Below, piece after piece: positions 9,478 through 57,279 of a DNA stretch of 64,000 bases. Each line of letters begins with the position of its first letter. Position 1 is the first letter of the stretch. The translations under genes and the position numbers were made by a program. Origin of the DNA: Patescibacteria group bacterium. GTDB lineage: Bacteria > Patescibacteriota > Patescibacteriia > 2-02-FULL-49-11. The stretch lies in contig JBAZQN010000007.1 of the NCBI GenBank assembly GCA_041645165.1, forward strand, positions 8,318 through 72,317. The letters are read 5' to 3'. Under the pieces are notes generated by a model. It was given only the letters and a program-made list of their open reading frames with translations. It was not told the DNA's origin and did no database searches.

Positions 9478-9493
9478 ACATCAGCAATAAATC

Positions 9494-13785: not shown

Positions 13786-13793
13786 AAGAAAAA

Positions 13794-13836
13794 AGGCGGA
13801 CACGGAGTGAGGAACCTTGTCCGCTTTGCCATTTTT
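13794..13836 (+). terminator. putative intrinsic terminator after purC-purE
   Basis: gcggacacgg...ccttgtccgc hairpin followed by TTTGCCATTTTT. Confidence 0.4.
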
Positions 13837-13946
13837 AAGCCCCCATTTCACCCTCTCCAATATCTTCTTTCTTCCCCTCTACCGCTTTCGTCCGCTTTCG
13901 TCCGTCTCAACCAGCACTAAAATCTAAACCAACACTAAAAACGAAA

Positions 13947-13980
13947 GACAATTAATCTCACGATCGTGAGGATAATGTCC
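13947..13980. repeat. 34-bp palindrome family, copy B
   Basis: gacaattaatctcacgatcgtgaggataatgtcc. Confidence 0.85.
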
Positions 13981-14045
13981 CTTCCTGTACATTACCTCTC
14001 TCGACAATATCACATTTCCATAAAATTTTCTGTCCATATTCATAT

Positions 14046-14215
14046 GAAGCTCCGCGGGCTTACACCCGCGGTGTCTTCCTCAACAGGAGATCCGGCGGAA
14101 TCCGCTTTAAGCTGCCTGCCGCCTTCGTCCCGACATGTTGGGACTTCGGCGGGTCCGCAATCCCGCATTCATCCGCGTATCTTACGCCCGCGGTTTTTTG
14201 CGGAGGCGGATAAAG
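14046..14215. repeat. ~170-nt hairpin-rich element, copy 1 of a two-copy family (candidate ncRNA or MITE)
   Basis: gaagctccgcgggcttacacccgcggtg ... cccgcattcatccgcgtatcttacgcccgcgg ttttttgcggaggcggataaa. It is homologous to 50570-50722, and the stems differ by paired, stem-preserving substitutions. Confidence 0.6.
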
Positions 14216-14265
14216 TGAAAACATCAATGATTATAAGTATTCAGAAATGAATTTCAATGAATGCC

Positions 14266-14304
14266 GACGACAATTAAAAATACGATCGTGACAATAATGT
14301 CCCC
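14266..14304. repeat. 34-bp palindrome family, copy C
   Basis: gacgacaattaaaaatacgatcgtgacaataatgtcccc. Confidence 0.8.
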
Positions 14305-14367
14305 TTGTCTTTCCCCACTTCCCGAATATGCCATCTTCCTACTTCTATTATTGCCTTTTTCAAGAGA

Positions 14368-14546
14368 GCAATTAATTCTACGATTCAGCCGACTGAAGCC
14401 ACAAGGCCACTATGGCGAAATTGGCTCACCCGCCTGCCAACGCCTGTCAGCAATGAACGGTGACATTCATCACGTTGTTATTATCCCTGACCAACATAAC
14501 GTTCCCCGGGAAAGGCAGATGGCGGGCAGGTGACAATAATGTCCCT
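14368..14546. repeat. 34-bp palindrome, copy D, split at its centre by two nested insertions
   Basis: Left half gcaattaattctacga and right half gtgacaataatgtccc are separated by a ~44-bp insert (ttcagccgac...ctatggcgaaattggctc, 14384-14427). A ~100-bp MITE-like element (cccgcctgcc...ggcgggcagg, 14429-14530) follows. Confidence 0.7.
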
Positions 14547-14631
14547 CCTATTTCCCCTTCATCGCCAGTTCTTTCCATTTCTCGTATCTCACCTCTTCCC
14601 TCCACGCCCAATATTCTATACTATAAAGAGC

Positions 14632-14666
14632 GCAATTATTTTCACGATCGTGAAAATAATGTCCCT
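14632..14666. repeat. 34-bp palindrome family, copy E
   Basis: gcaattattttcacgatcgtgaaaataatgtccc, immediately 3' of the PaaX-like gene. Confidence 0.85.
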
Positions 14667-14698
14667 TCACCTTTTTCTATTTTCCTTGCGTCGCATTA

Positions 14699-15250
14699 TT
14701 ACAGCCCAAACATCTTTTCCGCCTGCGCCATACCGTCAAAGTAGTCTGCCCGAATGTAACGGACATACTTCCCCACCTTGTAGTACGCCGTGGTCGCATT
14801 AATCTCGTCCTGACATTCATACGGATAAGCCCACACGCTTAAATTCACGTAACGGAATCCGAGATCACGGAGTTTTTTCCGGAATGCATCGCGCGCGCGG
14901 CGAAAATCTTCAGGAATATCAAACACGACTATACGCCATTTCCCGTCCCAGTGGGGAGGTTTCATTATGGTAATCGAATCGATCGCTCTTCCTTTCAATA
15001 CCTCCTTCCCCCTCTGGGTGAGCCGATACTCCCATGCGGTACGTTTACTGCTCACCCGCTCCACATACCCTTGTCGCTCGAATCTCCGCAGCGTGCGGCG
15101 CAGCGGTTTGCGCGGAATCGAATAGCGATTCGCACCCATGCCGAAGAGCTGCACTGCATTGGGCGCCATAACAGCCACGGTGAGCATTCCAATGCCCTCA
15201 AGAATTTTCCAAATGGTATCAGCGTACGCTTTTCCTTTCTTGGGTCTCAT
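14699..15250 (-). CDS. PaaX-like transcriptional regulator (wHTH N-terminal domain plus PaaX_C-like C-terminal domain)
   Basis: WDGKWRIVVFDIPE matches the PaaX hallmark WDGKWLLLL-E. The C-terminal RRARDAFRKKLRDLGFRYVNLSVWAY also has a Cas2-like character. Confidence 0.45.
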   Translation of the reverse strand: MRPKKGKAYADTIWKILEGIGMLTVAVMAPNAVQLFGMGANRYSIPRKPLRRTLRRFERQGYVERVSSKRTAWEYRLTQRGKEVLKGRAIDSITIMKPPHWDGKWRIVVFDIPEDFRRARDAFRKKLRDLGFRYVNLSVWAYPYECQDEINATTAYYKVGKYVRYIRADYFDGMAQAEKMFGL

Positions 15251-15341: not shown

Positions 15342-15415
15342 GACAATTAATGTCACGAGCCAACTTCGCCATAGTAGCCGATGGCTACGTCGGCTGAATC
15401 GTGAAAATAATTGTC
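15342..15415. repeat. 34-bp palindrome, copy F, with a ~41-bp central insertion
   Basis: agacaattaatgtcacga | gccaacttcgccatagtagccgatggctacgtcggctgaat | cgtgaaaataattgtc. The insert is the reverse complement of the one in copy D (14384-14427). It lies in the divergent PaaX-like / ECF sigma promoter region. Confidence 0.75.
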
Positions 15416-15512
15416 TTCTTGCCAGTCTCTCTTTTATGGTATTTATGGTATAGTGAAATCCCAGATTGTAATGATTCTAGCCTTTTTTCGACTACTGATA
15501 ACGTAAAAAAAC

Positions 15513-16058
15513 ATGCCTCCCGAACCAATACCAACTCGCGACAAGGAACTTGAGGAGCGTTTTTTGGCTGCGTATGACGCCCAGGTGAAATCCATTTTCC
15601 GCTACATCTACTACCGCACTGGCCAGGAAAAAGAGGAAACGCAAGAGCTCACGCAGGAAGTATTCATGCGCACATGGGCGTACCTGCAAGAAAATAAGCG
15701 CCCCATCGACGACATCCGCGCTTTCCTCTTTCAAGTGGCCCGCCATGTCATCGCGGACCGGTGGCGCAAACACAAACCTGCGCTTTCCCTCGAAGAGTTA
15801 TCTCCTCAAGAAGAGCCTGCCACCCCGCCGCTCCCGCACGCATCCCTCGACCTTCTCATCCTTGAACAGCACCTTTTGAAGCTCCCCGTACGCCACAGGG
15901 AAATATTAACGCTGCGCTTTATCAGCGACCTCTCGACTGAAGAAACAGGGCGCGTTCTCGGCATTAGCGCGAATAATGTGGCAGTACTCACCAATAGGGC
16001 GATTAAAAAATTAAGAAAATTACTTCCCACTACCATGCATGATGTATTGGATGCATAA
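15513..16058 (+). CDS. RNA polymerase sigma-70 factor, ECF subfamily
   Basis: 181 aa. Region 2 (QELTQEVFMRTWAY) and a region-4 HTH (LTLRFISDLSTEETGRVLGISANNVAVLTNRAIKKLR). Confidence 0.8.
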   Translation: MPPEPIPTRDKELEERFLAAYDAQVKSIFRYIYYRTGQEKEETQELTQEVFMRTWAYLQENKRPIDDIRAFLFQVARHVIADRWRKHKPALSLEELSPQEEPATPPLPHASLDLLILEQHLLKLPVRHREILTLRFISDLSTEETGRVLGISANNVAVLTNRAIKKLRKLLPTTMHDVLDA

Positions 16059-16107
16059 TTTACCGCATTAAATTATAACAAATTTTCAATTTTCAAATAC
16101 CAATTTT

Positions 16108-28950: not shown

Positions 28951-29063
28951 ATAGCCTTATGCCTATCTTCTCTAATTCATTTTACCTCCAATGATAAAGT
29001 CTTGACAAGAAAATATACAGCCGCTATACTTGTGCTACTGTGCTAATACAGTGAAACACTACT

Positions 29064-29348
29064 ATGGAACAACAGCTCTCGACAAAACAGGCCAATGACC
29101 TTTTTGACGCAATATTATCGCTCAAATCAGCCAAAGAATGCAAAGCATTTCTTAGGGATCTCTGCACTCTGTCTGAAATTGAGGCGATGATAGAACGTTT
29201 ACATGTTGCCAAAATGGTTAAAAGTGACATACCATACCGTGAAATTAGCGCTAAAACCGGTTCAAGTACCGCTACCGTCACCCGTGTGGCCCATTGGTTT
29301 CATCATGGGATGGGTGGCTATGGGCTTGTGCTTGACCGCGTGAAATAA
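29064..29348 (+). CDS. YerC/YecD (TrpR-like) family DNA-binding protein
   Basis: LSEIEAMIERLHVAKMV ... ISAKTGSSTATVTRVAHWF matches the Trp-repressor-like YerC/YecD family. A paralog is at 48979-49293. Confidence 0.7.
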   Translation: MEQQLSTKQANDLFDAILSLKSAKECKAFLRDLCTLSEIEAMIERLHVAKMVKSDIPYREISAKTGSSTATVTRVAHWFHHGMGGYGLVLDRVK

Positions 29349-29374
29349 ACTGCATCAAACACTTGCGTCCAGTC

Positions 29375-29408
29375 ACCCGTTTAAAAAACGGGTTTTTTAT
29401 TTTATTCA
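29375..29408 (+). terminator. intrinsic terminator
   Basis: acccgtttaaaaaacgggt hairpin followed by TTTTTTATTTTATT. Confidence 0.55.
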
Positions 29409-29423
29409 CCTAATTTTTGCCTT

Positions 29424-30713
29424 ATGAACAAAATCCAACCAACGATTCTCAAAGGAACCCGCGATGTGCTCCCTCCGCAAATGATACAGCGCAATGCGGT
29501 CATGGAAACCATGCGTAAGACTTTTGAAAGTTTCGGATATGCACCGATTGAAACGCCGATAATTTGCCCTGCGGAGACCATTTTGGGCAAATATGGCGAA
29601 GAAGGAGACCGGCTCACCTATTCATTCAAAGACCGAGGGGGAAGGCTCATCGCGTTGCCATATGATTTGACGGTGCCCTTCGCGCGTTTTTTCGCGGCAA
29701 ATTATCAAAAATTGCCTTTTCCTTTCAAGCGCTACCAAATGCAGCGTGTGTGGAGAGCGGAAAAACCGCAAAAAGGTCGCCTGCGCGAATTTTACCAGTG
29801 CGATATTGACATCATCGGATCAAAAAGCCTGATCTGTGAAGCAGAAATTGTCAAAATTATCGCGGTAGTATTTGAAAAACTGGGAATTCGAAACATCGTG
29901 ATCAAGGCGAACTCAAGACGGCTGATGAATGCAATATTGCAGTCTTATGGCATTGATCAAGACAATGCGGTATCAGTCATTCGCATAATCGACAAAATGA
30001 CAAAAATCGGGAAGGATTCTGTAATATCAGAATTGAAAAAAATGGGGGTAAACGACGCCGAAAAAATAATCAAAACGCTTTCTCCTGAAGATACAAACGC
30101 AAACACGCTGAAAAAACTAGCCGCGTACGACAGCTCCTCTTTGGAAGAATTTTTAGCTTACTGTAATACCCTTGGCGTACCTGAAAAATGCCTCCAAATT
30201 GATCCGACGCTGGCGAGAGGGCTCGATTACTATACTGGGCTTACCTTTGAGGCGGTGAGCGAGAATACGGATTTCGGATCAATATGCGCCGGCGGCCGTT
30301 ATGACGATCTCTGCGGCATTTTCTCTGATAAAAACTTTTCCGGAGTCGGCGTCGCGTTCGGTTTTGAACGGATCATGCTATTGCTCGAACAACTGCGGCT
30401 TTTACCCAACGGCAGCGCACCGTCGCAAGTTCTCGTGACTATTTTTGATAAAAATTCAATCCAAGAAGCGCTGCAGATTTATAACAGGCTCATTGAAGCC
30501 GGCGTCGCGGCGGAAATTTACTTTGAACCTGAAAAGCTGTCAAAACAATTCAAATTCGCGGATAAAAAACAAATTCCGTTTGTGCTTATTCAGGGGCCTG
30601 ATGAGAGGGGAAAAAGTGAAATTACCGTCAAACGAATGCAAAACGGAAAACAGAAAACTTTGCCGGTAAGCCAATTAATTTCCTATCTAGGAAATTTCTA
30701 TGAAACGAAATAA
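29424..30713 (+). CDS. hisS: histidyl-tRNA synthetase-like protein (HisRS motifs plus an anticodon-binding domain) at the head of the his operon; possibly doubles as HisZ
   Basis: Motif 2 WRAEKPQKGRLREFYQCD, motif 3 GGRYDDL, and a C-terminal anticodon-binding-like domain. Its 14-nt overlap with the short-form hisG is the position HisZ normally occupies. Confidence 0.6.
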   Translation: MNKIQPTILKGTRDVLPPQMIQRNAVMETMRKTFESFGYAPIETPIICPAETILGKYGEEGDRLTYSFKDRGGRLIALPYDLTVPFARFFAANYQKLPFPFKRYQMQRVWRAEKPQKGRLREFYQCDIDIIGSKSLICEAEIVKIIAVVFEKLGIRNIVIKANSRRLMNAILQSYGIDQDNAVSVIRIIDKMTKIGKDSVISELKKMGVNDAEKIIKTLSPEDTNANTLKKLAAYDSSSLEEFLAYCNTLGVPEKCLQIDPTLARGLDYYTGLTFEAVSENTDFGSICAGGRYDDLCGIFSDKNFSGVGVAFGFERIMLLLEQLRLLPNGSAPSQVLVTIFDKNSIQEALQIYNRLIEAGVAAEIYFEPEKLSKQFKFADKKQIPFVLIQGPDERGKSEITVKRMQNGKQKTLPVSQLISYLGNFYETK

Positions 30714-31320
30714 TATCAGGATCGCAATTCAGAAAGAAGGGCGGCTTAAAAACCCGAGTCTTGAGTTTCTTGAATCTTTAGGCCTTCAATTTTCCAAAGC
30801 CAGCGGCAGAACGCTTGTCGTGCCCTGCGAGAACGTTGATGTCGAAATTTTGTATGTGCGACACAGCGATATACCGCAGTATCTCCAGAGCGGAGCGGCT
30901 GATTTTGCCGTTGTCGGCGGCAATGTGCTGTATGAAAATAATTTTAACATAAGAGAAATAAAACAACTGGATTTTGGCATATGCAGTTTGGTGATCGCCA
31001 TACCAATCGACTCTCCCATTCAAAAAACACAGGAGCTTGAAGGAGAACGTATCGCAACGTCTTATCCAAACAGCTTGCGCAAATTTTTACAAAAACAAAA
31101 AATCAATGCGTCCATCATTGAAATAACGGGCTCCGTTGAAGTTGCGCCCGCGTTGGGGCTTGCAGATGCGATTTGCGATCTTACACAGACAGGGAATACG
31201 CTCAAAGAAAACGCTCTGAAACCGATAGAAACATTATTTGATTCTATGGCTGTATTCATTGCGTCGCCGTTTGAAAGCAGGCAGAAGAGTGGATTTATCA
31301 ATAAATTTTTAACCCAATAA
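30700..31320 (+). CDS. hisG: ATP phosphoribosyltransferase, short form
   Basis: 206 aa (HisG_S length). MKRNNIRIAIQKEGRL...DLTQTGNTLKENAL. Confidence 0.85.
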   Translation: MKRNNIRIAIQKEGRLKNPSLEFLESLGLQFSKASGRTLVVPCENVDVEILYVRHSDIPQYLQSGAADFAVVGGNVLYENNFNIREIKQLDFGICSLVIAIPIDSPIQKTQELEGERIATSYPNSLRKFLQKQKINASIIEITGSVEVAPALGLADAICDLTQTGNTLKENALKPIETLFDSMAVFIASPFESRQKSGFINKFLTQ

Positions 31321-31322
31321 AT

Positions 31323-31577
31323 ATGATTGAACTAATTGGATACACAGCAGCATTTCTTACGGCATCTGTTATGATACCTCAAATTGCTAGATCAATTCGC
31401 ACGAAAAGCGTTGGAGATATCTCGTTTATGATGTTGGCTTTATACATTACAAATACAGGATTATGGGTAACTTATGGCGTTCTCATAGGGGCTGGACCTG
31501 TTGTCGTAGCAGATAGTTTTGCTTGCTGTGCTGGAATTACACAATTAATTATAAAATTAAAATACAATAAATTATGA
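31323..31577 (+). CDS. SemiSWEET / PQ-loop small membrane transporter
   Basis: 84 aa, three predicted TM helices, PQ motif (MIPQIARSIRTKS) in TM1. It is embedded between hisG and hisD with 2-nt gaps. Confidence 0.55.
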   Translation: MIELIGYTAAFLTASVMIPQIARSIRTKSVGDISFMMLALYITNTGLWVTYGVLIGAGPVVVADSFACCAGITQLIIKLKYNKL

Positions 31578-32860
31578 AAAAATATTACTTCAAGCAACTT
31601 GACGACGTCTTATTAAAAAACCTTTGCGAAAGAAAGGCAATCCGTTTTGATGACGTTTTGCCCGTTGTTAAAAACATACTGGATAAAGTAAAAAATAATG
31701 GCGATGAAGCTGTGGGTGAATTTACGCAAAAATTCGACAAAGTTCACCTTTCGTCTCTCGCCGTAACTCAACAGGAAATTGATCGGGCTTGCAAGCGCAT
31801 TCCGACAAACATTCAAAATGCTTTCGCACAAGCGGCGCGTAATATTGAGAAATTTCACAAATCACAATTGGTTAAACGGATAAAAGTGGAAACAGCAGCG
31901 GGGGTTACCTGTTTTACAGAGACGAGGCCGATTGAAAAAGTCGGATTATACATTCCGGGCGGCACCGCTTCCCTGCCTTCCACAGTGCTCATGCTTGCAA
32001 TTCCTGCAAAGCTGGCGGGATGCGGGGAAATCGTGCTGGTGACCCCGCCCGCTAAAGACGGAAACGTCCCCGATGTTATATTATTCGCCGCCACGCTATG
32101 CGGAATTGCGCGAATCTATAAAATTGGCGGCGCACAAGCTATTGCGGCGCTTGCGTTCGGCACGGAAAGTATACCAAAGGTGTACAAAATTTTCGGTCCT
32201 GGCAATCAGTACGTCACCGCTGCAAAGATGCTTGTTTCCATCGATCCTGAAGGCGCTGCTATTGATATGCCCGCGGGCCCGACGGAGGTGCTGGTGATTG
32301 CCGATGAAAGCGCGCGAGCCGATTTTGTGGCAGGCGATCTTTTGGCGCAAGCGGAGCACGGTGCTGATTCGCAGGCGATACTCATTGCCACTTCCGACAA
32401 GAAAGCTGACGAGGTTTCAGATGAAGCGTATCGGCAACTACAAACCCTGCCGCGAAAAGAGACTGCTCAAAAATCTTTGAAAAACAGCTTCGCCATCATT
32501 GTCAATTCTATGAATGAGGCCCTTGCATTCTCCAACAGATATGCGCCGGAACACCTTATCTTGAATGTGAAAAACGCCTTCAGGTACGTGCCAAAAGTGG
32601 AAAGCGCCGGTTCCGTATTTTTAGGTCCGTACTCCTGTGAATCAGCCGGGGATTATGCAAGCGGTGCCAATCACACGTTGCCGACGTATGCGCGAGCCCG
32701 CGCCTCCGGAGGCGTCTCGGTAAGTAGTTTTCAAAAACAAATAACCTTTCAAAAAGTGACGAAGCAAGGCGCGAAAAATATAAACCCTCTCGTGTCCACC
32801 ATGGCCGGTCAAGAATCGCTTGAGGGGCACAAAAGAGCCATGCAATTGCGTTTAGAATGA
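31574..32860 (+). CDS. hisD: histidinol dehydrogenase
   Basis: 428 aa. The HisD length plus motifs IGGAQAIAALAFGTESIPKVYKIFGPGNQYV and EHGADSQ. Confidence 0.9.
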   Translation: MKKYYFKQLDDVLLKNLCERKAIRFDDVLPVVKNILDKVKNNGDEAVGEFTQKFDKVHLSSLAVTQQEIDRACKRIPTNIQNAFAQAARNIEKFHKSQLVKRIKVETAAGVTCFTETRPIEKVGLYIPGGTASLPSTVLMLAIPAKLAGCGEIVLVTPPAKDGNVPDVILFAATLCGIARIYKIGGAQAIAALAFGTESIPKVYKIFGPGNQYVTAAKMLVSIDPEGAAIDMPAGPTEVLVIADESARADFVAGDLLAQAEHGADSQAILIATSDKKADEVSDEAYRQLQTLPRKETAQKSLKNSFAIIVNSMNEALAFSNRYAPEHLILNVKNAFRYVPKVESAGSVFLGPYSCESAGDYASGANHTLPTYARARASGGVSVSSFQKQITFQKVTKQGAKNINPLVSTMAGQESLEGHKRAMQLRLE

Positions 32861-32870
32861 CTGTTATAAT

Positions 32871-34436
32871 ATGAGGAATCTCGCACTGGATAGAATCCGA
32901 AAGATGAAACCGTATATACCACCATTAGACGGCCGATTTATGTATGGTGGAATGCTGCTGGATTTCAGTGAGAACACATTATCATCCCGAAGTAAGGTCG
33001 CTCAAGCACTGAATAAATTTGTGAAGGAGAGAAAACTGCATATCTATCCCGAGTATTATAATTTGGAAGAAATAATCGCAAACTACGCGGGAGTGAATGC
33101 AAATCAGATAATGATCACCAACGGTTCCGACCAAGGAATTGACGTTATCTTTCGCACATTCACCGATAAGGGGAGCAAGGTCATCATTCCGCGCCCCAGC
33201 TTCGCCATGTTTTACCAATGCGCCCAAGTGGTCGGTAATGAAGTGGTGCGCCCCGCATATCGAGAGGAAGATCTTTCATTTCCGTTGGATGAAGTGCTTA
33301 ATTCGATTGATGACGAGGTAAGGCTCGTGGTGGTGTGCAATCCCAACAATCCTACGGGTACCGCCGTATCCGTTGCCGACATTGCAAAAATCGCACGTAA
33401 GGCGAAGGAGGCGATCATTTACGTCGATGAGGCATATTTTGAATTTTCAAAGATCACCGCTCTGCCACTCATTAATAGATTTCCTAACATCGTCATCACG
33501 AGGACTTTTTCGAAAGCATTCGGTCTCGCCTCCATGAGAATCGGCTACGTCATTGCAAGAAAAGAATATATATCCGAAATGCTGAAAGTGCGCGGTCCTT
33601 TTGATATCAATATGGCCGCGTACTATACCGCCAGTGCCGCACTTGAGGAGAAACAAAATATGCAACGTTACGTTGATGAAGTCATGCAGCGCGCAAAACC
33701 GTTTGTGGAAAAATTCTTTTCCCAAAATGCCATACCATATTTCTCCTCTTGTGCAAATTTTATTCTGTTTCGTCCAGACAATCCCGCCCGCGTCATGACA
33801 CAACTTCGTAGGGGCGGTGCGCTGGTGAGACCGCAAACTCAAAAAGGGGTGGAAAACACTTTACGGGTAAGCATTGGCACCGCTGATCAAATGCAGAAAT
33901 TCGTGGAGATTTATAAAAAATTCGTTCTGAGCAACTCTCAACAAAAATATGCATTTCTTGATCGTGACGGCACACTGATATATGAACCACAAACCACGTA
34001 TCAAATCGACAGTGTAAGGAAACTAAAAATCCTTGACGGCGCGATAAAAGGACTGCAAGAACTGCAAAAAAGGGGTTATTCATTAATAATGATTTCCAAC
34101 CAGGACGGCTTGGGCACCTCGTCATTCCCTCGTAAGAATTTTAAAGCTCCACAAGAGAAGATGCTGAATATTTTCCGCAAAAAGGGAATAACTTTTGAAC
34201 GGATATTCATCTGCCCTCACCTGCCGCATGAGGCGTGTACTTGCCGGAAACCAAAAATGGGACTGGTGGATGCGTATTTGAGGAACTCAAATTTTGATAA
34301 AAACCTGTCATTGGTGTGCGGAGACAGAAAAAGCGACCGGCAGTTCGCAAAAAATATCGGCCTTACATTCGTCTTTATGGAGACGAACGGCAATTTTTAC
34401 GAAGCAATTAAATCAGTGCTAACCGAATCTCTATGA
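32871..34436 (+). CDS. hisC: histidinol-phosphate aminotransferase fused to a HAD-type histidinol-phosphatase domain (HisC-HisN/HisB-N fusion)
   Basis: The N-terminal ~350 aa are a class-II aminotransferase (TRTFSKAFGLASMRIGY). The C-terminal ~165 aa have HAD motifs FLDRDGTL, ISNQDG and GDRKSD, as in the HisB N-terminal phosphatase. Confidence 0.75.
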   Translation: MRNLALDRIRKMKPYIPPLDGRFMYGGMLLDFSENTLSSRSKVAQALNKFVKERKLHIYPEYYNLEEIIANYAGVNANQIMITNGSDQGIDVIFRTFTDKGSKVIIPRPSFAMFYQCAQVVGNEVVRPAYREEDLSFPLDEVLNSIDDEVRLVVVCNPNNPTGTAVSVADIAKIARKAKEAIIYVDEAYFEFSKITALPLINRFPNIVITRTFSKAFGLASMRIGYVIARKEYISEMLKVRGPFDINMAAYYTASAALEEKQNMQRYVDEVMQRAKPFVEKFFSQNAIPYFSSCANFILFRPDNPARVMTQLRRGGALVRPQTQKGVENTLRVSIGTADQMQKFVEIYKKFVLSNSQQKYAFLDRDGTLIYEPQTTYQIDSVRKLKILDGAIKGLQELQKRGYSLIMISNQDGLGTSSFPRKNFKAPQEKMLNIFRKKGITFERIFICPHLPHEACTCRKPKMGLVDAYLRNSNFDKNLSLVCGDRKSDRQFAKNIGLTFVFMETNGNFYEAIKSVLTESL

Positions 34437-35023
34437 AATCAAGAACGGCAACAATCAGGCGCAAGACGATGGAAACGGATATAACTGTAAATGTGAATCT
34501 CGACGGTACGGGCAAATACCGGGTGGATACCGGCATCGGCTTCCTGAATCACATGCTGGAGCTTTTTTCCAAGCATTCATTGATAGATCTCACCCTGAAA
34601 GCGAAAGGCGATGCGAAGGTGGATGAACACCACACTATTGAGGACGTCGGCATCTGTCTCGGCAAGGCGCTGCGCAAGGCTTTAGGGGATAAGAAAGGCA
34701 TTGAGCGGTATGGATTTCTGCTGCCGATGGACGAAGCTCTGACCGAAGCCGCAATTGATTTGGGCGGAAGGCCTTATCTTGTGTGGAACGTTTCTTTTAA
34801 GCGGGAAATGATCGGAGACATGCCGACAGAGCTTTTCGAGGATTTCTTCAAGGCAGTGGCCGATAACCTTCAAGCGAATATCCACCTCAATGTAAAATAC
34901 GGCAGGAATGAACACCACATCGCGGAAAGCGTCTTTAAGGCGCTCGCAAGATGCTTGAGGTCTGCAGTGAGCCGCCAAACTCGCACGAAAAAACTATTAC
35001 CCTCTACCAAAGGAAAACTATGA
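34433..35023 (+). CDS. hisB: imidazoleglycerol-phosphate dehydratase
   Basis: 196 aa with the IGPD conserved His/Glu clusters (DEHHTIED, HHIAES). Confidence 0.85.
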   Translation: MKSRTATIRRKTMETDITVNVNLDGTGKYRVDTGIGFLNHMLELFSKHSLIDLTLKAKGDAKVDEHHTIEDVGICLGKALRKALGDKKGIERYGFLLPMDEALTEAAIDLGGRPYLVWNVSFKREMIGDMPTELFEDFFKAVADNLQANIHLNVKYGRNEHHIAESVFKALARCLRSAVSRQTRTKKLLPSTKGKL

Positions 35024-35610
35024 TTGCCATAATCAATTACAAGGCCGGCAATGTCGCGTCAGTGAAAAATGCGCTGGAACGGCTGGGGAGCGCGTGCACC
35101 GTCACATCCGATCCGGAGGAAATTCTATCCGCTGATGGCGTGATTTTCCCTGGCCAAGGCAGGGCAGGCGCCGCTCTGTCAGAACTGCAAAAGGCACGCA
35201 TTGATACCGTTATCCCTCGAATCACCAAGCCGTTTTTAGGCATTTGTTTAGGGATGCAGCTCCTTGGACGCTTTTCCGAAGAAGATAACACAAAATGTCT
35301 CGAGGTGTTTCAGGGTATAAGTCGCAAGTTTCCGCCGACGCTCAAAACCCCGCACCTCGGCTGGAATAAAGCAGAACTCACGAAAAAATCCCCCCTCACG
35401 GCGGGTATCACGAACGGATCGTACTTTTATTTCGTGCACTCATATTACATGGATGCTACGGAGGATCAAACGGCGGGGACAACGAGTTATGGTTTTGATT
35501 TCACTTCAATCATGCAAAAAGACAACTTTTTTGCCGTCCAGTTCCACCCAGAAAAATCCGGCGCGCAGGGCTTGCGATTGCTTACTAATTTTTACGAATT
35601 ATGCTTGTAA
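35020..35610 (+). CDS. hisH: imidazole glycerol phosphate synthase, glutamine amidotransferase subunit
   Basis: MIAIINYKAGN start and GICLGMQLL nucleophile-Cys context. It overlaps the hisB stop (ATGA). Confidence 0.8.
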   Translation: MIAIINYKAGNVASVKNALERLGSACTVTSDPEEILSADGVIFPGQGRAGAALSELQKARIDTVIPRITKPFLGICLGMQLLGRFSEEDNTKCLEVFQGISRKFPPTLKTPHLGWNKAELTKKSPLTAGITNGSYFYFVHSYYMDATEDQTAGTTSYGFDFTSIMQKDNFFAVQFHPEKSGAQGLRLLTNFYELCL

Positions 35611-37076
35611 TACCAGCCATTGATATTGTCGGCGGCAAATGCGTGCGCCTCACGCAGGGCGATTTTGCCAAAAGCACCCTCTACAGCGCGAATCCGGCTG
35701 ATGTCGCGAAAGATTTTGAACGTCAGGGTACGCGATTTCTGCATGTCGTGGATTTGGACGGCGCCAGAACAGGTTTTCCGGTGAATTCGGAAACAATTCT
35801 TTCCATCGCAAAATCGGTCGGCATTCCGATCCAAATCGGAGGAGGAATCCGCTCCTACGATCAGGCACGCGGGTATCTTGAGGGCGGCGTCTCGAAAATC
35901 GTTTTAGGCACCGCGGTTATTGAGAATCCAAAAATGCTAGAGCGCGTGTCCAGGGATTTTGGTAAGTCGCGTGTTACGGTCTCTGTCGACATAAAAGATG
36001 GAAACGCTGCCACTTGCGGGTGGCTGAAAAAGAGCACTGAAACCGCTCCTGCACTCATTGCCGCTCTCAAAAAAATAGGTATTGCGTCCGTGATAGTAAC
36101 CGACACTTCAAAAGACGGCCTGCTCCAGGGTCCGAATTTTGGTTTGACAAAGCTGTTTATTGATGAAGGTTTTGAGACTATCGCGGCCGGAGGCGTGACC
36201 TCTTTATCCGATATTAGGGAGTTTACCAAACTTGGCGCGTATGGCGTTATCGTGGGGAAAGCGATCTATGAAAATAAGATTGATATGCGAAACGCGCAGC
36301 GCGAAGCGGCGTACAAAAGCAGCTTGGCAAAAAGAATAATCCCGTGTTTGGATGTAAAAAATGGACGCGTGGTAAAGGGCACTTATTTTACGAATCTGCG
36401 CGATGCCGGCGATCCCGTTGCATTGGGAAAAAAATATTGCCAGCAAGGAGCCGATGAGCTCATTTTATTGGATATTGCGGCAACGTTAGAAAGCCGCAAA
36501 ACGTTTTGCGATCTGGTATCGGCAATAGCGCGTGAGATAAGCATACCATTTACCGTAGGCGGCGGGATCACCACCATAGAAGACATTCGTAAACTGCTGA
36601 GTGTCGGGGCAGACAAAGTTTCCATCGGGACCGCGGCAGTGAGAAATCCCCGTTTTATCAAAGATGCGGCCGCATATTTTGGTTCGCAATGCATTGTTAT
36701 TTCAATTGACGCAAAAAGGCAGAATGAAGACTTCATAATTTACATAAAGGGCGGGACGGAAAAAACAGAGATGGACGCCGTGGCTTTTTCCAAACAAATG
36801 GCGCAGTATGGCGCCGGCGAGCTTCTGGTAAATAGTTTGGATCGCGACGGGACCCAAAAAGGATTTGATGTTGAGCTGTTAAAAAGAGTTACCGACAGCG
36901 TATCCATACCGGTGATTGCTTCAAGCGGCGCAGGCTCAATGAGGGATTTCTTGACGGTCTTTGAAAAAACAAACGTAGATGCGGCTCTTGGCGCGAGCAT
37001 TTTTCATTCTCAAGAGAAGAGCATCATGGAACTTAAAAGGTTTTTATCCAGCAATAACATACCTATACGCCTATGA
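35601..37076 (+). CDS. hisA: HisA-HisF fusion (ProFAR isomerase plus IGP synthase cyclase subunit)
   Basis: The N-terminal half is HisA-like (LVIPAIDIVGGKCVRL). The C-terminal half is HisF-like (RIIPCLDVKNGRVVKG...). Both are (beta/alpha)8 barrels in one 491-aa ORF. Confidence 0.8.
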   Translation: MLVIPAIDIVGGKCVRLTQGDFAKSTLYSANPADVAKDFERQGTRFLHVVDLDGARTGFPVNSETILSIAKSVGIPIQIGGGIRSYDQARGYLEGGVSKIVLGTAVIENPKMLERVSRDFGKSRVTVSVDIKDGNAATCGWLKKSTETAPALIAALKKIGIASVIVTDTSKDGLLQGPNFGLTKLFIDEGFETIAAGGVTSLSDIREFTKLGAYGVIVGKAIYENKIDMRNAQREAAYKSSLAKRIIPCLDVKNGRVVKGTYFTNLRDAGDPVALGKKYCQQGADELILLDIAATLESRKTFCDLVSAIAREISIPFTVGGGITTIEDIRKLLSVGADKVSIGTAAVRNPRFIKDAAAYFGSQCIVISIDAKRQNEDFIIYIKGGTEKTEMDAVAFSKQMAQYGAGELLVNSLDRDGTQKGFDVELLKRVTDSVSIPVIASSGAGSMRDFLTVFEKTNVDAALGASIFHSQEKSIMELKRFLSSNNIPIRL

Positions 37077-37756
37077 ATACCGTTAAAAATGCGAAAAAAA
37101 ACGTACTAAAACCTGTTCAGGTTAATATCTCTCATGGGGTAGATAAACTCAACACCGAACGATTGGATTTCGAGAAACTTAGCGGGATCATACCTGCTAT
37201 CATTCAAGATGCCGACACCAAGCTCGTGCTTATGCTGGGTTTTATGAATAAAGACGCACTGAACAAAACAATAAAAAACAGAAAGGTGACTTTTTGGAGT
37301 AGGACAAAAAAACGGCTATGGGAAAAAGGGAAATCTTCTGGCAATACGCTTAAGGTGCTCTCCATTGCCACAGATTGCGACCACGACACGCTTTTGATTT
37401 TAACAAAGCCGCAAGGGCCTGTCTGCCACACCGGTGCCTATTCTTGTTTTGGAGTAAAAAAACAAGAGCGATCTGATTTTTTGAAGGAACTCTATGACCT
37501 GATCGCCACAAGGAAAAAAGAATTGCCGATACGTTCTTACACCACCTCTCTTTTTAACCAAGGGCTGGGTAAAATACTGAAAAAGGTTAAGGAAGAATCC
37601 GGTGAAGTAATACAGGCTGCGAAAAAAGAGTCAAAAACACGGCTCATCGAAGAAAGTGCCGATCTCGTCTATCACTTATGGGTGCTGTTGGCTGAAAAAA
37701 ACATCTCAATCTGCGATCTCCTTACTGAACTCAAACGCAGAAGAAAAGGCGGTTAA
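37073..37756 (+). CDS. hisI: bifunctional phosphoribosyl-AMP cyclohydrolase / phosphoribosyl-ATP pyrophosphatase
   Basis: HisI core (TFWSRTKKRLWEKGKSSGNTLKV...CDHDTLL) plus a C-terminal HisE/MazG-like domain (KILKKVKEESGEVIQAAK). Confidence 0.8.
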   Translation: MNTVKNAKKNVLKPVQVNISHGVDKLNTERLDFEKLSGIIPAIIQDADTKLVLMLGFMNKDALNKTIKNRKVTFWSRTKKRLWEKGKSSGNTLKVLSIATDCDHDTLLILTKPQGPVCHTGAYSCFGVKKQERSDFLKELYDLIATRKKELPIRSYTTSLFNQGLGKILKKVKEESGEVIQAAKKESKTRLIEESADLVYHLWVLLAEKNISICDLLTELKRRRKGG

Positions 37757-48978: not shown

Positions 48979-49293
48979 TTATAGCACAGTTCTCTTTTTC
49001 TTGCCAACACCCATGCGCGTAAGCATAGCGCGGTAACCACCCATCCCACTTTTTAGCCAGTGCGCCACGCGCACCACCGTGGAGGTAGACAGTCCTGTCT
49101 TTTTCGCCACCTCGCGGTAGGTCTCCCCTTCTGCCAGCAGATTCACCGCCTGCCAGCGCTTGCTGAATTCCCTGATTTCTTCAAGGGTCAGAAGGTCCCT
49201 GAAAAAACGTTCGGCTTCGCTCAAGTCTTTGAGCTTCAGCACTGCCCTGCACAGGGATCTGGTATGTTCATTCGTCCATGGATACGGAGCCAT
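48979..49293 (-). CDS. YerC/YecD (TrpR-like) family protein, second paralog
   Basis: LTLEEIREFSKRWQAVNLL...VAKKTGLSTSTVVRVAHWL, closely parallel to 29064-29348. Confidence 0.65.
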   Translation of the reverse strand: MAPYPWTNEHTRSLCRAVLKLKDLSEAERFFRDLLTLEEIREFSKRWQAVNLLAEGETYREVAKKTGLSTSTVVRVAHWLKSGMGGYRAMLTRMGVGKKKRTVL

Positions 49294-50907: not shown

Positions 50908-51639
50908 CTATTTTTCCCCAAGAAAGCTTACGATTTTCTGCTCAAGGATTTTACGGAAATCTTTAAGATGCATGACATGGCTTGCGGGTAAAAATTCCCG
51001 AAGTTCGCCGCGGAAATTGATCTTGGATTTCTTCAATAAAGCAAGAACTTGAGTGAGATCGTCTTTTTCCTTCACCAATGGATAGTTTCCCGAAAGCAAA
51101 AAGAAATAATCGTAAAAATCCCTTGGTTTATGACGATTGATAAGTGCTTTCATTTTACCTTTAATGATTTCTTCTTTCGGTAAATGGACAAGGGTATAGG
51201 GCTGAATATAGTCATTTTCAATCAGCGTTCTGACGCCCCTAATCCAATTGTCATTGCGCAGAGAAACCTCAAAATAAATTTCAGTGATTTTATCGTAGGC
51301 GCTAAATTCAAATATGCCCAAGTATCCTCCGGTTGTGTATTTCCCTTCTTTGAGGGAAACGTGGATACCGGTCTTCTCGATATTGGCCAAGGTATTGATA
51401 AAAAGTTTCTCAACTTTATGTTTGGCAATTTTCACACCGGTAAAATCAAGATCTTCTGAAAAACGAGGACTATGGAAAACAATCCGCAAAGCTGTGCCGC
51501 CCTTGAAGAGCAGACGATCCGCATCGGGCAATTGGTAAAGATACGACAAAAACAAGTGCTGGCAATATTCTCGAACGACATTTCCGAGTTTAGTTTGCGT
51601 GTGATCAGTAAATTTTTGGAGGTTTGCGCGTGTCAACAT
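50908..51639 (-). CDS. AbiEii/AbiGii-family nucleotidyltransferase toxin (type IV TA)
   Basis: GGTALRIVFHSPRFSEDLDFT is the DUF1814/AbiEii signature. Confidence 0.7.
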   Translation of the reverse strand: MLTRANLQKFTDHTQTKLGNVVREYCQHLFLSYLYQLPDADRLLFKGGTALRIVFHSPRFSEDLDFTGVKIAKHKVEKLFINTLANIEKTGIHVSLKEGKYTTGGYLGIFEFSAYDKITEIYFEVSLRNDNWIRGVRTLIENDYIQPYTLVHLPKEEIIKGKMKALINRHKPRDFYDYFFLLSGNYPLVKEKDDLTQVLALLKKSKINFRGELREFLPASHVMHLKDFRKILEQKIVSFLGEK

Positions 51640-52760: not shown

Positions 52761-55136
52761 TCAGAGTTTCTCAAAATCCTTTTCCGAAATTCCGAGCCCG
52801 AGATTCCTCATCACGCTATAGGCGTCTGCGGCGCGGCCGAGGAAATAGCGCTTACCGTCTTTGGGGTTGATATACCACGCCTCTCCCCTGCTCTCTACCT
52901 GCAGAAATATCTTGCCCTTATGCTTATTGGCAAACGCGATATCAGTGCGCACCTTAGCGGTGCCATGCACCGTGGGCGCGCTTCCTTGCTCGATCTCTTG
53001 CTTATCGCCCATGCCGTCGCCATCCGTATCGGCTTTCGCCTTATCCGTTCCCAGCGCGTCTTCGAGCAGATCCGACAATCCATCTTTATCTGCATCCTCC
53101 CCTGCCATCTGCACGAGCCCCACGGGAATTTTTGACAAATCAACTGTCTTTACGCCAACCCCCTGCTGGCGCATAATCGCATACGCATCATCCGCACGGC
53201 CTAAGTAATACGCGGTCGTGTCCCGCACGCTAAAATACCAGGCTTCACCATGTTTCTCGACCTGGAGAACAATTCTCCCCAAAAGCGACCTCCCCTTGCT
53301 GCTGGAAATTTTCTTTGAGGACAAGGGCGCAGAAGACGATTGAGGCTGGAGGTTCTGCGACAGTGATGGCGCGGGTGACGGAGCGGCTGAAGAGGAGGGG
53401 GTCGCCGCAGGAGGAGCAGCTACCGGCCTGCCGAGCGAGAGCCCGGCAAGCACCTCACGCTCAAACTGCGCGACAAGATCGTCAAATTTCTTCTGATCGC
53501 TGCCGTACCACTCAAACATGACAACCATCACGCGATCCTTCTCTCGTATGCGATAACCGGCGCCAAACCATTCAGCGGTGTTCCCCGTTTCTTCATTTTC
53601 GAAACGGTATCGGTAGTGGATGCCATCCGGCACCTCGCCGTTCACACGGTAATGAAATGATGACTGATAACGTTTGGGAGTGTAGAGAGACGCGACGGTA
53701 AAATCGCTGGCAATGATATTCTTAATAGAATCAAAATACTGTTCATTTGTCGCGTTTTCTACGCTTGAGGTTTGTTCCACAAGATACACGCCCCAGCCTA
53801 ACTCCGGTATGTCCTGATTTTGGCCGCTCGCCGGATGGCCGGAATGGTTAAGCGGCTTGAGCACCCATGGCTTGGGTACGGTAATCGTAAAGTGAGGTTT
53901 CGCGTGTTCGTAATACCGCTGTTCTGTAAAAGGAGCGCCATCATCCTTCAACACAAGCGTTTTGAACATGCTGTCAATCTTGTCTTTATCTTTCTTGTTT
54001 TTGCCTTCATACCAGGTGAGCGTGACAATGTATTGCTTACTTGGGAATAGGGCGGTATATAACTCCCCTTCCGACACTTGTTTTGCGAAACGTTTGCCGG
54101 TCTTTCCGCTCACCACCATATCCCCCTGTTGAATAAGAGAAGAGATCTTCTGGAGTATGTTAGCACTTACTTCCAGGATATGCGGCGTGATGAGAAGCTC
54201 CGTAGGCGCCCAAGATGCACTCAAAAATCCACCGTCGGGATCGTCATTTTCCACGCCTATGGCGTTCTCGTCATCGTGAAAAAATTTCCAGCCATCCGGT
54301 TTCGTCATCTTAAGATAAGGGATAGTGCTGGTAAACACGTTGATATTTTTCAGCCCCACTTGCTCCCTGATAAGCGCATCTATCCTGCCCTGCAAAGGTG
54401 AAACGCTTGTGGACTTCTGGTATGCCTTCAAGAGCCACGGTTCTACCGTTGCCATGCTAATGGCGTATCCAAGGCTTCCCGTGTAATCAGAATGCGCTTC
54501 CGAAGTGATGCCGATAAGTTCTCCGCTCACATTCACGAGTGCGCCGCCGGATGATCCAAAGGAAATCACGGCGCCGGTTTTTATCCACGATTTTTGATAT
54601 TTTTCTAACGTGCCCGCGACCGTATCCACGCTTGCGGTAATGGTCTTCCCTCCAATGCTGGGGTACCCGAGCGCGAGCACCTCGTCGCCGGTTTTCACTG
54701 ACGCGTGCGTGCCGCGATTATAATAATCAAACTGGGTGATGCGGCTAAGACCCTCCACGTTGCGGATTTTCAAGAGCGCGAGATCAAGCTCCTTATTTTT
54801 GTCGATCACGTGGGCGGAATAACTGCAGTCCGGCTCCTCGGTGAGCGATGTGGTAAGGCATACGATGTACGCGGTTGCGAGGGGCTCCCGGAACCGATCC
54901 TCGCTGTGGATGACGTGGTAATTGGTGAGCATGTCGCCCTGGTTATTGATGATAACTCCCGAACCATAGCCCACGAGGACGAGATTGCGATAATTATCCT
55001 CAATGTAAGTCTTGATTTTTACCACAGCCTTATGCGCGTCATCCGCGTTCACCGCCGCGCGTGCGGGCATAGCGGTGCTGACAACAAACAAGATTGCAGC
55101 CATGATAATGACAAATGTTCGGGAAATGGTATACAT
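52761..55136 (-). CDS. secreted trypsin-like (S1C/HtrA-family) serine protease with a Pro/Ser-rich linker, TSP3-like calcium-binding repeats and two ~45-aa C-terminal modules
   Basis: Catalytic triad contexts TNYHVI, D, GSSGGALVN. DTDGDGMGD / DADKDGLSD repeats. The duplicated LQVE(K/S)(H/R)GEAWY...YFLGRA(D/A)DAY modules. Confidence 0.7.
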   Translation of the reverse strand: MYTISRTFVIIMAAILFVVSTAMPARAAVNADDAHKAVVKIKTYIEDNYRNLVLVGYGSGVIINNQGDMLTNYHVIHSEDRFREPLATAYIVCLTTSLTEEPDCSYSAHVIDKNKELDLALLKIRNVEGLSRITQFDYYNRGTHASVKTGDEVLALGYPSIGGKTITASVDTVAGTLEKYQKSWIKTGAVISFGSSGGALVNVSGELIGITSEAHSDYTGSLGYAISMATVEPWLLKAYQKSTSVSPLQGRIDALIREQVGLKNINVFTSTIPYLKMTKPDGWKFFHDDENAIGVENDDPDGGFLSASWAPTELLITPHILEVSANILQKISSLIQQGDMVVSGKTGKRFAKQVSEGELYTALFPSKQYIVTLTWYEGKNKKDKDKIDSMFKTLVLKDDGAPFTEQRYYEHAKPHFTITVPKPWVLKPLNHSGHPASGQNQDIPELGWGVYLVEQTSSVENATNEQYFDSIKNIIASDFTVASLYTPKRYQSSFHYRVNGEVPDGIHYRYRFENEETGNTAEWFGAGYRIREKDRVMVVMFEWYGSDQKKFDDLVAQFEREVLAGLSLGRPVAAPPAATPSSSAAPSPAPSLSQNLQPQSSSAPLSSKKISSSKGRSLLGRIVLQVEKHGEAWYFSVRDTTAYYLGRADDAYAIMRQQGVGVKTVDLSKIPVGLVQMAGEDADKDGLSDLLEDALGTDKAKADTDGDGMGDKQEIEQGSAPTVHGTAKVRTDIAFANKHKGKIFLQVESRGEAWYINPKDGKRYFLGRAADAYSVMRNLGLGISEKDFEKL

Positions 55137-55232
55137 AAAATTCGCGATTAATAATAAAGCCCCTATGCTTAAAATGTTCAGATCGACGTGTCAAGTGTCC
55201 GTAGACTTGGCATCTATGAAATTATAATAAAC

Positions 55233-56036
55233 TTACTTTGAGACCTCATTTGAAGGCGCGCCCTTTATTGTATTTAATTCTTTATACTGCAAATACGTGT
55301 AGGCGATGAATACAGGAGTGATGATGCTGGTGATAATTTGTATGATGTTTTGCCATACTGCGCTGAAGATCTTGTCGCCTGTGAACATTTTCACGGGAAT
55401 GGAGAGGATGACGTAGATCAAGACTGAGATAACGAGGACAAACAGCGACCTTCCAAATATCGCCCACCAATATCCTGTTATTATTTCCTTACTTCGCTTC
55501 AATGACGCGCGGATTCCCGAATTTTCGAAAACCACCACAAATAACGCAAACGAATAATACACCCAATAGATAATGCCAGGTACGATGAGGAGAAGGGACA
55601 ACAACACAATTAACAATCCGTACAGAAAGCCCGCACCTACCACTTTCCACCAATAGCGCTGCGCGCGTTTGAATGTCTCTCGCACCGATTCGGAGGGCAG
55701 TGACTGCATGCGGAGACATATCGCCGTAGAGGTAAGAATGCTGAGGTAAACAAGCAGAAGAAGCCACACGATACCGAAGATGCCCAGAATAATATTCACA
55801 ATCGCCTCCTCTCTTGCGCTCCCCTTATGAAGTACCATGATTATCACATTAAGAAGCAGCAATACACGGGGGAGCAATCCTACGAGGATTATCAATGCGT
55901 AAGGCTTGAGCTGTGAAAGGACGAGCTCAACCGCCTGTTTGAATAGGTCGGGAGGACTGCTAAGTGTGGGTCGTTGAATTGTAAGTGGTTGCATATCATT
56001 GGTCATACGTGATGGAGTGAGATTTAATGCCAACAT
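55233..56036 (-). CDS. polytopic membrane protein, function unknown (DUF975-like)
   Basis: Six or more predicted TM helices, no motifs. Confidence 0.4.
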   Translation of the reverse strand: MLALNLTPSRMTNDMQPLTIQRPTLSSPPDLFKQAVELVLSQLKPYALIILVGLLPRVLLLLNVIIMVLHKGSAREEAIVNIILGIFGIVWLLLLVYLSILTSTAICLRMQSLPSESVRETFKRAQRYWWKVVGAGFLYGLLIVLLSLLLIVPGIIYWVYYSFALFVVVFENSGIRASLKRSKEIITGYWWAIFGRSLFVLVISVLIYVILSIPVKMFTGDKIFSAVWQNIIQIITSIITPVFIAYTYLQYKELNTIKGAPSNEVSK

Positions 56037-57268: not shown

Positions 57269-57279
57269 AGACTAAGCTA

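Follow-up and report, generated by a model that had tools for sequence, protein, structure and literature searches.

The window analysed here is a 64-kb stretch of a metagenome contig from a Patescibacteria group bacterium. The unit under study, at positions 29064-37756 of the forward strand, is a complete, tightly packed histidine-synthesis (his) operon of a Patescibacteria (candidate phyla radiation, CPR) lineage. The pathway is a well-known one, and its form here is unusual without amounting to a new system. Gene order is hisR, hisS, hisG, a SemiSWEET transporter gene, hisD, hisC::hisN, hisB, hisH, hisA::hisF and hisIE. The preferred reading, held with moderate confidence, is that of a HisR-governed regulon with a housekeeping hisS, a long-type HisG that has lost its regulatory domain and works without HisZ, a pathway compacted by gene fusion, and a recently inserted transporter gene. 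Every his gene lies above its curated NCBIfam cut-off in the profile search of the window proteins. The operon is neither an assembly artefact nor a chance arrangement, because assemblies from ENA, Logan and NCBI recovered the contig independently and the layout is repeated in related loci. Nine open reading frames (ORFs) from hisS to hisIE had been described in an earlier note on this stretch; the ORF listing places all of them on the forward strand at the coordinates claimed, and the curated profile searches return the same gene order and the same three fusions.

The gene hisS (29424-30713, +; TIGR00442, PF13393 and PF03129) codes for a histidine-tRNA ligase of 429 amino acids (aa) and is, by every sequence test applied, that of a genuine histidyl-tRNA synthetase (HisRS). 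The product scores 403.3 bits on the hisS model TIGR00442 (cut-off 286.75) and 178.1 bits on the hisZ model TIGR00443 (cut-off 271.65). The best of the long-HisZ models, NF008942, gives 137.7 bits against a cut-off of 643, and all HisZ models (NF0089xx) fail. The window HisRS is no more HisZ-like than any HisRS, because the ordinary CPR HisRS of locus L028 gives a nearly identical pair of scores (426 bits on the hisS model, 197 bits on the hisZ model). The closest match in the PDB is the HisRS 6nhi (E = 4e-95); HisZ structures reach 62-85 bits. The anticodon-binding domain PF03129 is present at residues 335-422 (56.8 bits), and R111, R119, R121-D127, R265-G272, G290-Y293 and G307-R316 do not vary among the 27 clade members aligned. 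These blocks cover motif 2, motif 3 and the histidine-binding motifs HisA (RGLDYY) and HisB (GGRYD); the catalytic blocks are identical to those of solved HisRS 6nhi. Adenylation and aminoacylation residues, whose loss would mark a HisZ, are all kept. The intact catalytic motifs and anticodon-binding domain reported in the earlier note are thus borne out.

The HisRS clade is monophyletic in the tree, without a long or accelerated branch. Three members (L010, L012, L014) have no adjacent hisG; L010 and L012 nest among the hisG-linked members and L014 is basal. A hisR-like gene still lies 5' of hisS in L010; a gene like that of phosphoribosyl pyrophosphate synthetase and a TrpR-like gene lie 3' of hisS in L012. 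No residue or indel separating hisG-linked from unlinked HisRS was found in the clade alignment, and one 9-residue deletion is common to the whole clade. On the simplest reading hisS would be the cell's working histidyl-tRNA synthetase, and the hisR-hisS module would be native to the lineage, with the biosynthetic genes attached to it. No second hisS or hisZ was found in the window (tblastn of all operon proteins against the 64 kb), and no second HisRS-like gene in about 400 kb of related loci fetched, which are loci and not complete genomes. That this is the sole HisRS, recruited into the operon, had been one of two earlier suggestions. It fits a product that passes the hisS model, fails the hisZ models, keeps its residues invariant and has orthologues without adjacent hisG; the gene is probably the only hisS of the genome. 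A separate hisS-hisG neighbourhood is found in L028 at 3360-6178 (Candidatus Moranbacteria UBA2206), where hisS is followed after about 500 nucleotides (nt) by a lone long-form hisG (323 aa with C-terminal regulatory domain). No further his genes lie within 8 kb of it, and L028 belongs to an unrelated CPR lineage in which the pathway is seemingly missing.

The gene hisG (30700-31320, +; TIGR00070, 196 bits) codes for an ATP phosphoribosyltransferase of 206 aa that consists of the catalytic core alone; the model of the C-terminal regulatory domain, TIGR03455, has no match in the product. HisG homologues of the lineage are 194-209 aa long and have the size of the short form (about 200-230 aa, without regulatory domain). 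Their sequence affiliation is with domains I and II of long forms of the E. coli and C. jejuni type, and not with the characterised short forms (HisGS). In a single-sequence PDB search the window HisG matches 7dah at 145 bits (about 44% identity across all 206 aa), C. jejuni 4yb5 and 5ub9 at 141-142 bits, E. coli 1h3d at 137 bits and M. thermautotrophicus 2vd3 at 133 bits, versus 84-99 bits for HisZ-dependent short-form structures. A profile built from six lineage members and searched against solved structures gives 170-193 bits for long-form cores versus 109-124 bits for short-form structures; E. coli 1h3d reaches 178 bits and the M. tuberculosis long type 128 bits. The top match to the profile, at 193 bits, is 5ub9, an engineered core of C. 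jejuni HisG that lacks the regulatory tail. Alignment to long forms reaches within 1-2 residues of the C-terminus, where the regulatory domain would begin; the SemiSWEET gene begins 2 nt after hisG. Because the scores favour long-form cores and the alignment stops where the regulatory domain starts, HisG looks like a long-form enzyme after loss of that domain. With a HisG of long-form type, a HisZ need not be expected. Genomes with a short hisG carry hisZ as a rule (PMC8305728, PMC3896937), and isolated HisGS is active but slow and histidine-insensitive (PMC10795190). The premise that the short HisG found here needs HisZ is weakened by the closer likeness of its core to long forms.

The unit begins 5' of hisS, at which the operon had formerly been made to start: a promoter, hisR and a hairpin precede it. 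The promoter is sigma-70-like (TTGACA-17-TATACT; 29002-29030, +) and matches 11 of 12 consensus positions. A degenerate HisR-operator-like palindrome, GTGCTAATACAGTGAAAC (29040-29057, +), lies directly 3' of the -10 box. The gene hisR (29064-29348, +; TIGR02531, PF01371) codes for a YerC/YecD regulator of the TrpR family, 94 aa in length, which scores 94 bits on TIGR02531 (cut-off 42.2) and has the HisR structure 3g1c of E. eligens as a match (E = 2e-18). The arrangement is conserved: TTGACA-17-TATA(C/A)T, followed at once by GTTTTA-N6-TAAAAC, stands 5' of hisR in 11 of 14 loci. The core TTTA-N6-TAAA of the lineage palindrome equals the published HisR consensus cacTTTAnnnnnnTAAAgtg, a motif validated in Ruminococcus gnavus (PMC9413887). 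Published HisR regulons comprise his biosynthesis genes and histidine transporters; hisS goes unmentioned (PMC9413887). At 49012-49275 (-) the window has another paralogue of the YerC/TrpR family, with 42% identity to the operon HisR, which is the one additional match when all operon proteins are searched against the window; it adjoins an AAA_14/DUF4143 ATPase gene and has no obvious his-related neighbours.

The spacer between hisR and hisS holds an intrinsic-terminator-like hairpin with a T-run (29375-29403, +; hairpin proper 29375-29393, 8-bp stem, 3-nt loop). Such a hairpin with T-run is found between the two genes in 12 of 14 loci and is G+C-rich, with differing stem sequences. In L102 the spacer is longer, and the promoter and operator block is repeated directly 5' of hisS. 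The hairpin may be a leaky terminator or an attenuator. An attenuator model for it was tried and found no support, the fold z-score being only -1.4 and the window having no leader ORF. T-box, his leader and tRNA-His were not found in the window (Rfam at gathering threshold, tRNA scan). In Firmicutes hisS is under T-box control, which hisS under histidine repression would mirror. At 9700-10000 of L010 hisS has its own TTGACA promoter and a perfect 12-bp palindrome, TGTAGTACTACA; a short ORF with two tandem His codons, MTITFNISHHRLFSR, and a second terminator-like hairpin lie just 5' of the hisS start, and these two could be a leader-peptide attenuator.

The remaining pathway genes follow on the same strand. 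The gene hisD (31574-32860, +) codes for histidinol dehydrogenase of 428 aa (TIGR00069, 522.8 bits; PF00815, 548 bits). The hisC::hisN fusion (32871-34436, +; 521 aa) joins a histidinol-phosphate aminotransferase (about 32889-33920) to a HAD-IIIA histidinol-phosphatase (HolPase; about 33942-34391). The HisC half scores 292.6 bits on TIGR01141 (cut-off 276.55) over residues 7-350, the HolPase half 189.2 bits on TIGR01261 hisB_Nterm (cut-off 140) over residues 358-507. The phosphatase is hisN in the Fani nomenclature; its assignment to the actinobacterial IMPase-type HisN was rejected, the domain being HAD-IIIA of the HisB N-terminal type (TIGR01261). Imidazoleglycerol-phosphate dehydratase of 196 aa is the product of hisB (34433-35023, +; NF002109, 289.7 bits, cut-off 278); the model alignment begins at residue 3, which supports the start at 34433. 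The gene hisH (35020-35610, +; TIGR01855, 210 bits) codes for a glutamine amidotransferase subunit of 196 aa. Its start is the ATG at 35020, not position 34951: TIGR01855 aligns from residue 25 of the longer ORF, the ATG at 35020 overlaps the hisB stop, and other gene callers likewise give a product of 196 aa. The hisA::hisF fusion (35601-37076, +; 491 aa) consists of HisA (about 35607-36293; TIGR00007, 384.6 bits, cut-off 228.95, residues 3-231) and HisF (about 36324-37070; TIGR00735, 402.8 bits, cut-off 294.55, residues 242-490). The last gene, hisIE (37073-37756, +), has PRA-CH and PRA-PH domains in 227 aa (NF002747, 263.8 bits, cut-off 187; PF01502 and PF01503). Junction spacings in gene order, from hisS to hisIE, are -14, +2, -4, +10, -4, -4, -10 and -4 nt. 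The claim that almost every junction overlaps by 2-14 nt was slightly overstated: six of the eight are overlaps of 4-14 nt, and the other two leave small gaps.

In both long fusions each half passes its own cut-off within a single uninterrupted ORF, and relatives were checked for ORF continuity. HisA and HisF are fused in 12 of 12 related loci checked; proteins of about 491 aa with this fusion make up at least 120 clusters at 90% identity, which are all full length and extend to 51% identity to the window protein. HisC and HolPase form one protein in 8 close relatives and are separate in L006, L013 and L102, which are deeper relatives; of the best 150 representatives at 50% identity, about 10 are full-length fusions. 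Both fusions had been called uncommon, which holds with reservations: HisC-HolPase is the rarer one, and metagenomic protein sets contain both in large numbers. In reviews of his fusions the partners are confined to hisD, N, B, H, F, I and E, and neither hisA-hisF nor hisC-hisN is among the fusions listed (PMC1963479, PMC10138114). Both fusions are real, under-described in the literature and not unique to the window. Further fusions occur in public protein sets (examples drawn from P0214, P0234, P0236, P0256, P0250 and P0278): HisH-HisA-HisF triple fusions of about 705 aa (P0214 has 710 aa), a HisD-HisC fusion of 783 aa, a HisC-HolPase of 729 aa that bears an unassigned 230-aa tail, and HisC-HAD_2 proteins (560-590 aa), which form a larger set than the HisC-HolPase fusions.

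The array hisR-hisS-hisG-hisD-hisC-hisN-hisB-hisH-hisAF-hisI(E) is found again in about 25 related loci of GTDB genomes and metagenomes, most of them labelled Patescibacteria, with the same layout in L003-L006, L009, L011, L013 and L090-L102. HisRS of the related loci is between 85% and about 50% identical to the window protein. A hisR is found 5' of hisS in nearly all of them. In all informative loci but two hisS stands immediately 5' of hisG; the two are L008, in which one methyltransferase-like gene lies between them (1312-2202), and L106, in which the hisR-hisS pair is inverted. The 14-nt hisS/hisG overlap of the window recurs in L003 and L006. From the distribution (HisA-HisF in every locus checked, HisC-HolPase in a subclade, SemiSWEET in one species) the HisA-HisF fusion appears to be the oldest, the HisC-HolPase fusion younger and the SemiSWEET insertion the youngest. 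Single loci depart from the layout. L013 has a HAD-like hydrolase as a guest between hisB and hisH (15352-16101); in L011 a 417-aa protein of unknown type and a HAD hydrolase replace hisC, hisN and hisB (13186-15083); L097 has no hisH between hisB and hisAF (9432-10741); in L105 hisH is directly 3' of hisG. In L099 (4711-5980) the reading frame of hisS is broken in two near residue 380, within the anticodon-binding domain, with the remaining operon intact, which is either a sequencing error or a decaying copy. NCBI labels for the clade L003-L014 disagree (Peribacteria, Gracilibacteria, Paceibacterota, Saccharimonadales, Delta- and Gammaproteobacteria). The taxonomy of these metagenome-assembled genomes is unreliable, and a single coherent HisRS/his-operon clade spans the discordant labels. 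A literature search for histidine biosynthesis in Patescibacteria or Peribacteria returned nothing relevant.

Under the preferred reading, HisR with histidine would bind the palindrome at its own promoter and turn the array off at high histidine. Expression of hisS and the whole pathway would come from transcripts that run on through the hairpin 3' of hisR, and the extent of read-through may set the ratio of regulator to pathway. Since the hisR-hisS pairing is also present in relatives without adjacent hisG, hisS would sit in the array as a member of a histidine-responsive regulon. HisG would most likely be a stand-alone catalytic dimer with neither allosteric feedback nor HisZ, and its control would be left to transcription and presumably to inhibition by AMP and ADP. 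The fusions join enzymes of consecutive steps (HisA-HisF, HisC-HolPase, HisI-HisE), and the SemiSWEET gene would be a passenger set precisely between hisG and hisD with translational coupling kept.

Several points weigh against this reading. The long-form affinity of HisG is a matter of similarity scores to solved structures, not of a full phylogeny, and the truncated C. jejuni long-form core of Mittelstädt et al. (2018, Biochem J 475:247; PDB 5ub9) is only reportedly an active, histidine-insensitive dimer. The operator copy of the window itself is degenerate, with 3 mismatches, and a motif scan of the whole window at 3 mismatches gives a count equal to chance; the operator call therefore rests on position and conservation. 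The hairpin ends about 20-30 nt 5' of the hisS ATG, so that most loci have no room for a separate hisS promoter, and none is seen; transcription of the pathway genes would have to pass the hairpin. A separate hisZ or a second hisS may exist beyond the 64-kb window and the related loci. Coupling by overlap, as between hisS and hisG, is typical of complex partners and would fit a physical HisRS-HisG association equally well.

Such an association is the core of the first alternative, which takes up the other earlier suggestion, a dual HisRS/HisZ role, and is considered unlikely: a moonlighting HisRS that charges tRNA-His and also binds the domain-less HisG as histidine sensor and activator, the part otherwise played by HisZ or by the lost C-terminal domain. 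Adjacency of hisS and hisG with the 14-nt overlap has been kept while HisRS of the lineage diverged to about 50% identity, HisG is without any allosteric domain, and neither the window nor any of the related loci fetched has a HisZ. HisZ is an evolutionary descendant of HisRS that binds histidine (PMC9437257), and Geobacteraceae have HisZ proteins with anticodon-binding domains (PMC2923632). Adjacency is unspecific for binding, however, as other operon junctions likewise overlap and are conserved, and in L008 a methyltransferase-like gene parts hisS from hisG. HisG falls by similarity into the long-form group, for which no HisZ dependence is known. The window HisRS does no better on HisZ models than an ordinary CPR HisRS, and the hisG-linked HisRS proteins carry no distinguishing residue or indel. 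A fully functional HisRS doubling as HisG partner would repeat independently, or preserve as a living intermediate, the step that produced HisZ, but that HisRS has this second role is decidedly doubtful.

The preferred reading treats the SemiSWEET gene (31323-31577, +; 84 aa) as a recently acquired horizontal passenger, which is the default reading of its sequence. The product is a PQ-loop protein (PF04193, 34.6 bits, cut-off 22; PF03083, 32.2 bits, cut-off 23.7) with P19 and Q20 of the PQ motif invariant; on the SemiSWEET subfamily model NF037968 it reaches 65.9 bits, below the cut-off of 80. Its composition is foreign: GC is 35.3% and GC at third codon positions (GC3) 23.5%, versus a GC3 of 43-57% in the his genes. 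The gene is present in one of about 25 operons, that of this species alone. The insertion point is exactly where relatives have the hisG/hisD ATGA overlap, and a direct repeat CAATAAAT(T)ATG flanks the gene at 31315-31325 and 31565-31576. Transfer from a low-GC CPR donor is suggested, because homologues match their surroundings in low-GC CPR contigs (Berkelbacteria, 34% GC; L110, 31% GC) and the homologue in a second 50%-GC contig, L107, is again anomalously AT-rich. The transporter, earlier left unexplained, is thus partly explained as a recent insertion of low GC3 that is missing from the other operons; its role would be that of a passenger.

It is improbable that the SemiSWEET is instead a functional part of the regulon, a half-transporter whose substrate would be histidine, histidinol or some other cationic compound. 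Basic amino acids are carried by PQ-loop relatives such as PQLC2. The gene was inserted seamlessly, with translational coupling kept (+2, -4 nt). Alignment to LbSemiSWEET is ungapped over residues 2-75. Of the sugar-pocket residues Thr13, Trp48 and Asn64 (PMC5972207), T13 and W48 are kept and Asn64 is replaced by Asp in all 8 homologues of the subfamily compared. HisR regulons elsewhere contain histidine transporters (PMC9413887). In Candidatus Berkelbacteria (L108, 4415-5622, and L109) a 75%-identical SemiSWEET gene lies between a tRNA_SAD (AlaX-like) gene and a gene for a TrpR/YerC-like regulator, with a perfect palindrome, GCTTTAACACAGTAAAGC, 570 nt upstream, 5' of the AlaX-like gene of L108; a TTTA...TAAA element overlaps the promoter of that regulator. 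Against a functional role, the gene occurs in only one operon, and homologues in L107 and L110 stand in unrelated contexts. YerC-like genes are frequent in such genomes, with two in the window, and the scan of L108 with the operator consensus at 3 mismatches was not above chance. Amino-acid transport is not known for any SemiSWEET. A non-sugar, possibly cationic substrate tied to amino-acid regulons is allowed by these observations, not established.

A hidden hisZ outside the window that partners HisG, with the operon hisS kept for co-regulation only, is considered very unlikely. It would accord with the rule that genomes with short hisG carry hisZ (PMC8305728, PMC3896937), hisZ is unlinked to hisG in some bacteria such as Geobacter (PMC2923632), and only part of the genome is visible. 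The type of HisG is by similarity not the HisZ-dependent one, however; no second HisRS-like gene is present in the 64-kb window or in the roughly 400 kb of related loci, and every other pathway gene lies within the operon. CPR genomes are small and rarely keep paralogues, which also counts against a hidden hisZ. That the operon gene is itself a functional HisZ still resembling HisRS, with tRNA-His charged by another gene, is extremely improbable: its place directly 5' of a short hisG is the classic hisZ position of Firmicutes and Geobacter HisZ retains an anticodon-binding domain (PMC2923632), but it lies above the hisS equivalog cut-off and below those of all HisZ models, its adenylation and histidine-binding motifs are invariant over deep divergence, its orthologues persist in loci without adjacent hisG, and its similarity is far greater to solved HisRS than to solved HisZ.

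Flanking genes of the operon suit a small genome of CPR type and comprise purB, a purC-purE fusion, pgk and many genes for hypothetical proteins. The PurC-PurE fusion (12472-13785, +; 437 aa) has SAICAR synthetase followed by AIR carboxylase and adjoins purB; its domain order is that of animal PAICS, and it is a further fusion of consecutive steps in the same genome. RHS/YD-repeat toxin-like genes with small downstream ORFs lie at about 55000-62500 (-), and an AbiEii toxin-family gene at 50908-51639 (-).

Compared with known systems, the operon is closest in plan to hisGDCBHAFI of E. coli and Salmonella, with which it shares the order G-D-C-(N)-B-H-A-F-IE, overlapping junctions and a fused hisIE. 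A HAD-type HolPase likewise lies between hisC and the dehydratase in the enterobacterial operon, the hisB-N (hisNB) position, and the enterobacterial HisG core is of the same sequence type (1h3d, 178 bits to the lineage profile). Unlike in that operon, hisN is joined here to hisC and not to hisB, hisA and hisF are fused, HisG is without regulatory domain, hisR and hisS lead, a transporter gene is present and no leader-peptide attenuator was found (no Rfam match). The HisZ-HisGS hetero-octamer of L. lactis, T. maritima, P. arcticus and A. baumannii likewise has a HisG of about 200 aa encoded beside a HisRS-fold gene. Unlike there, the partner here is a complete HisRS that fails HisZ models, and the lineage HisG profile scores 109-124 bits to HisGS, markedly below its scores to long forms; HisZ and HisGS form a complex, whereas the adjacency and 14-nt overlap described here are known from genes alone. 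The engineered C. jejuni core 5ub9 has the same domain content as the window HisG, a long-type core without regulatory tail; the former is a laboratory truncation, the latter a natural gene conserved across the lineage and known from its sequence.

In the HisR (YerC) regulon of Firmicutes, Actinobacteria and Synergistetes the his operon likewise opens with the gene of a TrpR-family regulator, about 95 aa long, and a 20-bp palindrome with core TTTA-N6-TAAA likewise stands at its own promoter, implying autoregulation (PMC9413887). Unlike in the published regulons, hisS would here be the first regulated gene, parted from hisR by the terminator-like hairpin. With LbSemiSWEET and the solved carriers 4qnc, 4rng and 4x5m the transporter shares a length of about 85 aa, three helices, the PQ motif, Thr13 and Trp48; it differs in the Asp in place of Asn64 throughout its subfamily and in a context of amino-acid and not carbohydrate genes. 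Known his fusions (hisIE, hisNB, HIS4 and eukaryotic HIS7, which is hisH-hisF) likewise join enzymes of consecutive steps.

Descriptions of CPR bacteria usually have them incapable of amino-acid synthesis; in this lineage the histidine pathway is complete, with nine genes sufficing for it. The operon would break, in an unexpected manner, the textbook rule that a short HisG goes with HisZ, its HisG resembling a natural counterpart of the engineered catalytic core of long forms, and lets one ask whether the first step of the pathway runs without allosteric feedback. The HisA-HisF and HisC-HolPase fusions are ready material in which channelling of substrate between the two paralogous barrels can be studied. 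A housekeeping HisRS translationally coupled to HisG is the arrangement that would be expected just before a HisZ-like regulator evolves. If HisRS is merely co-regulated with the pathway, the operon is a tidy but modest case of operon compaction; a moonlighting HisRS that regulates HisG, if true, would be the interesting outcome.

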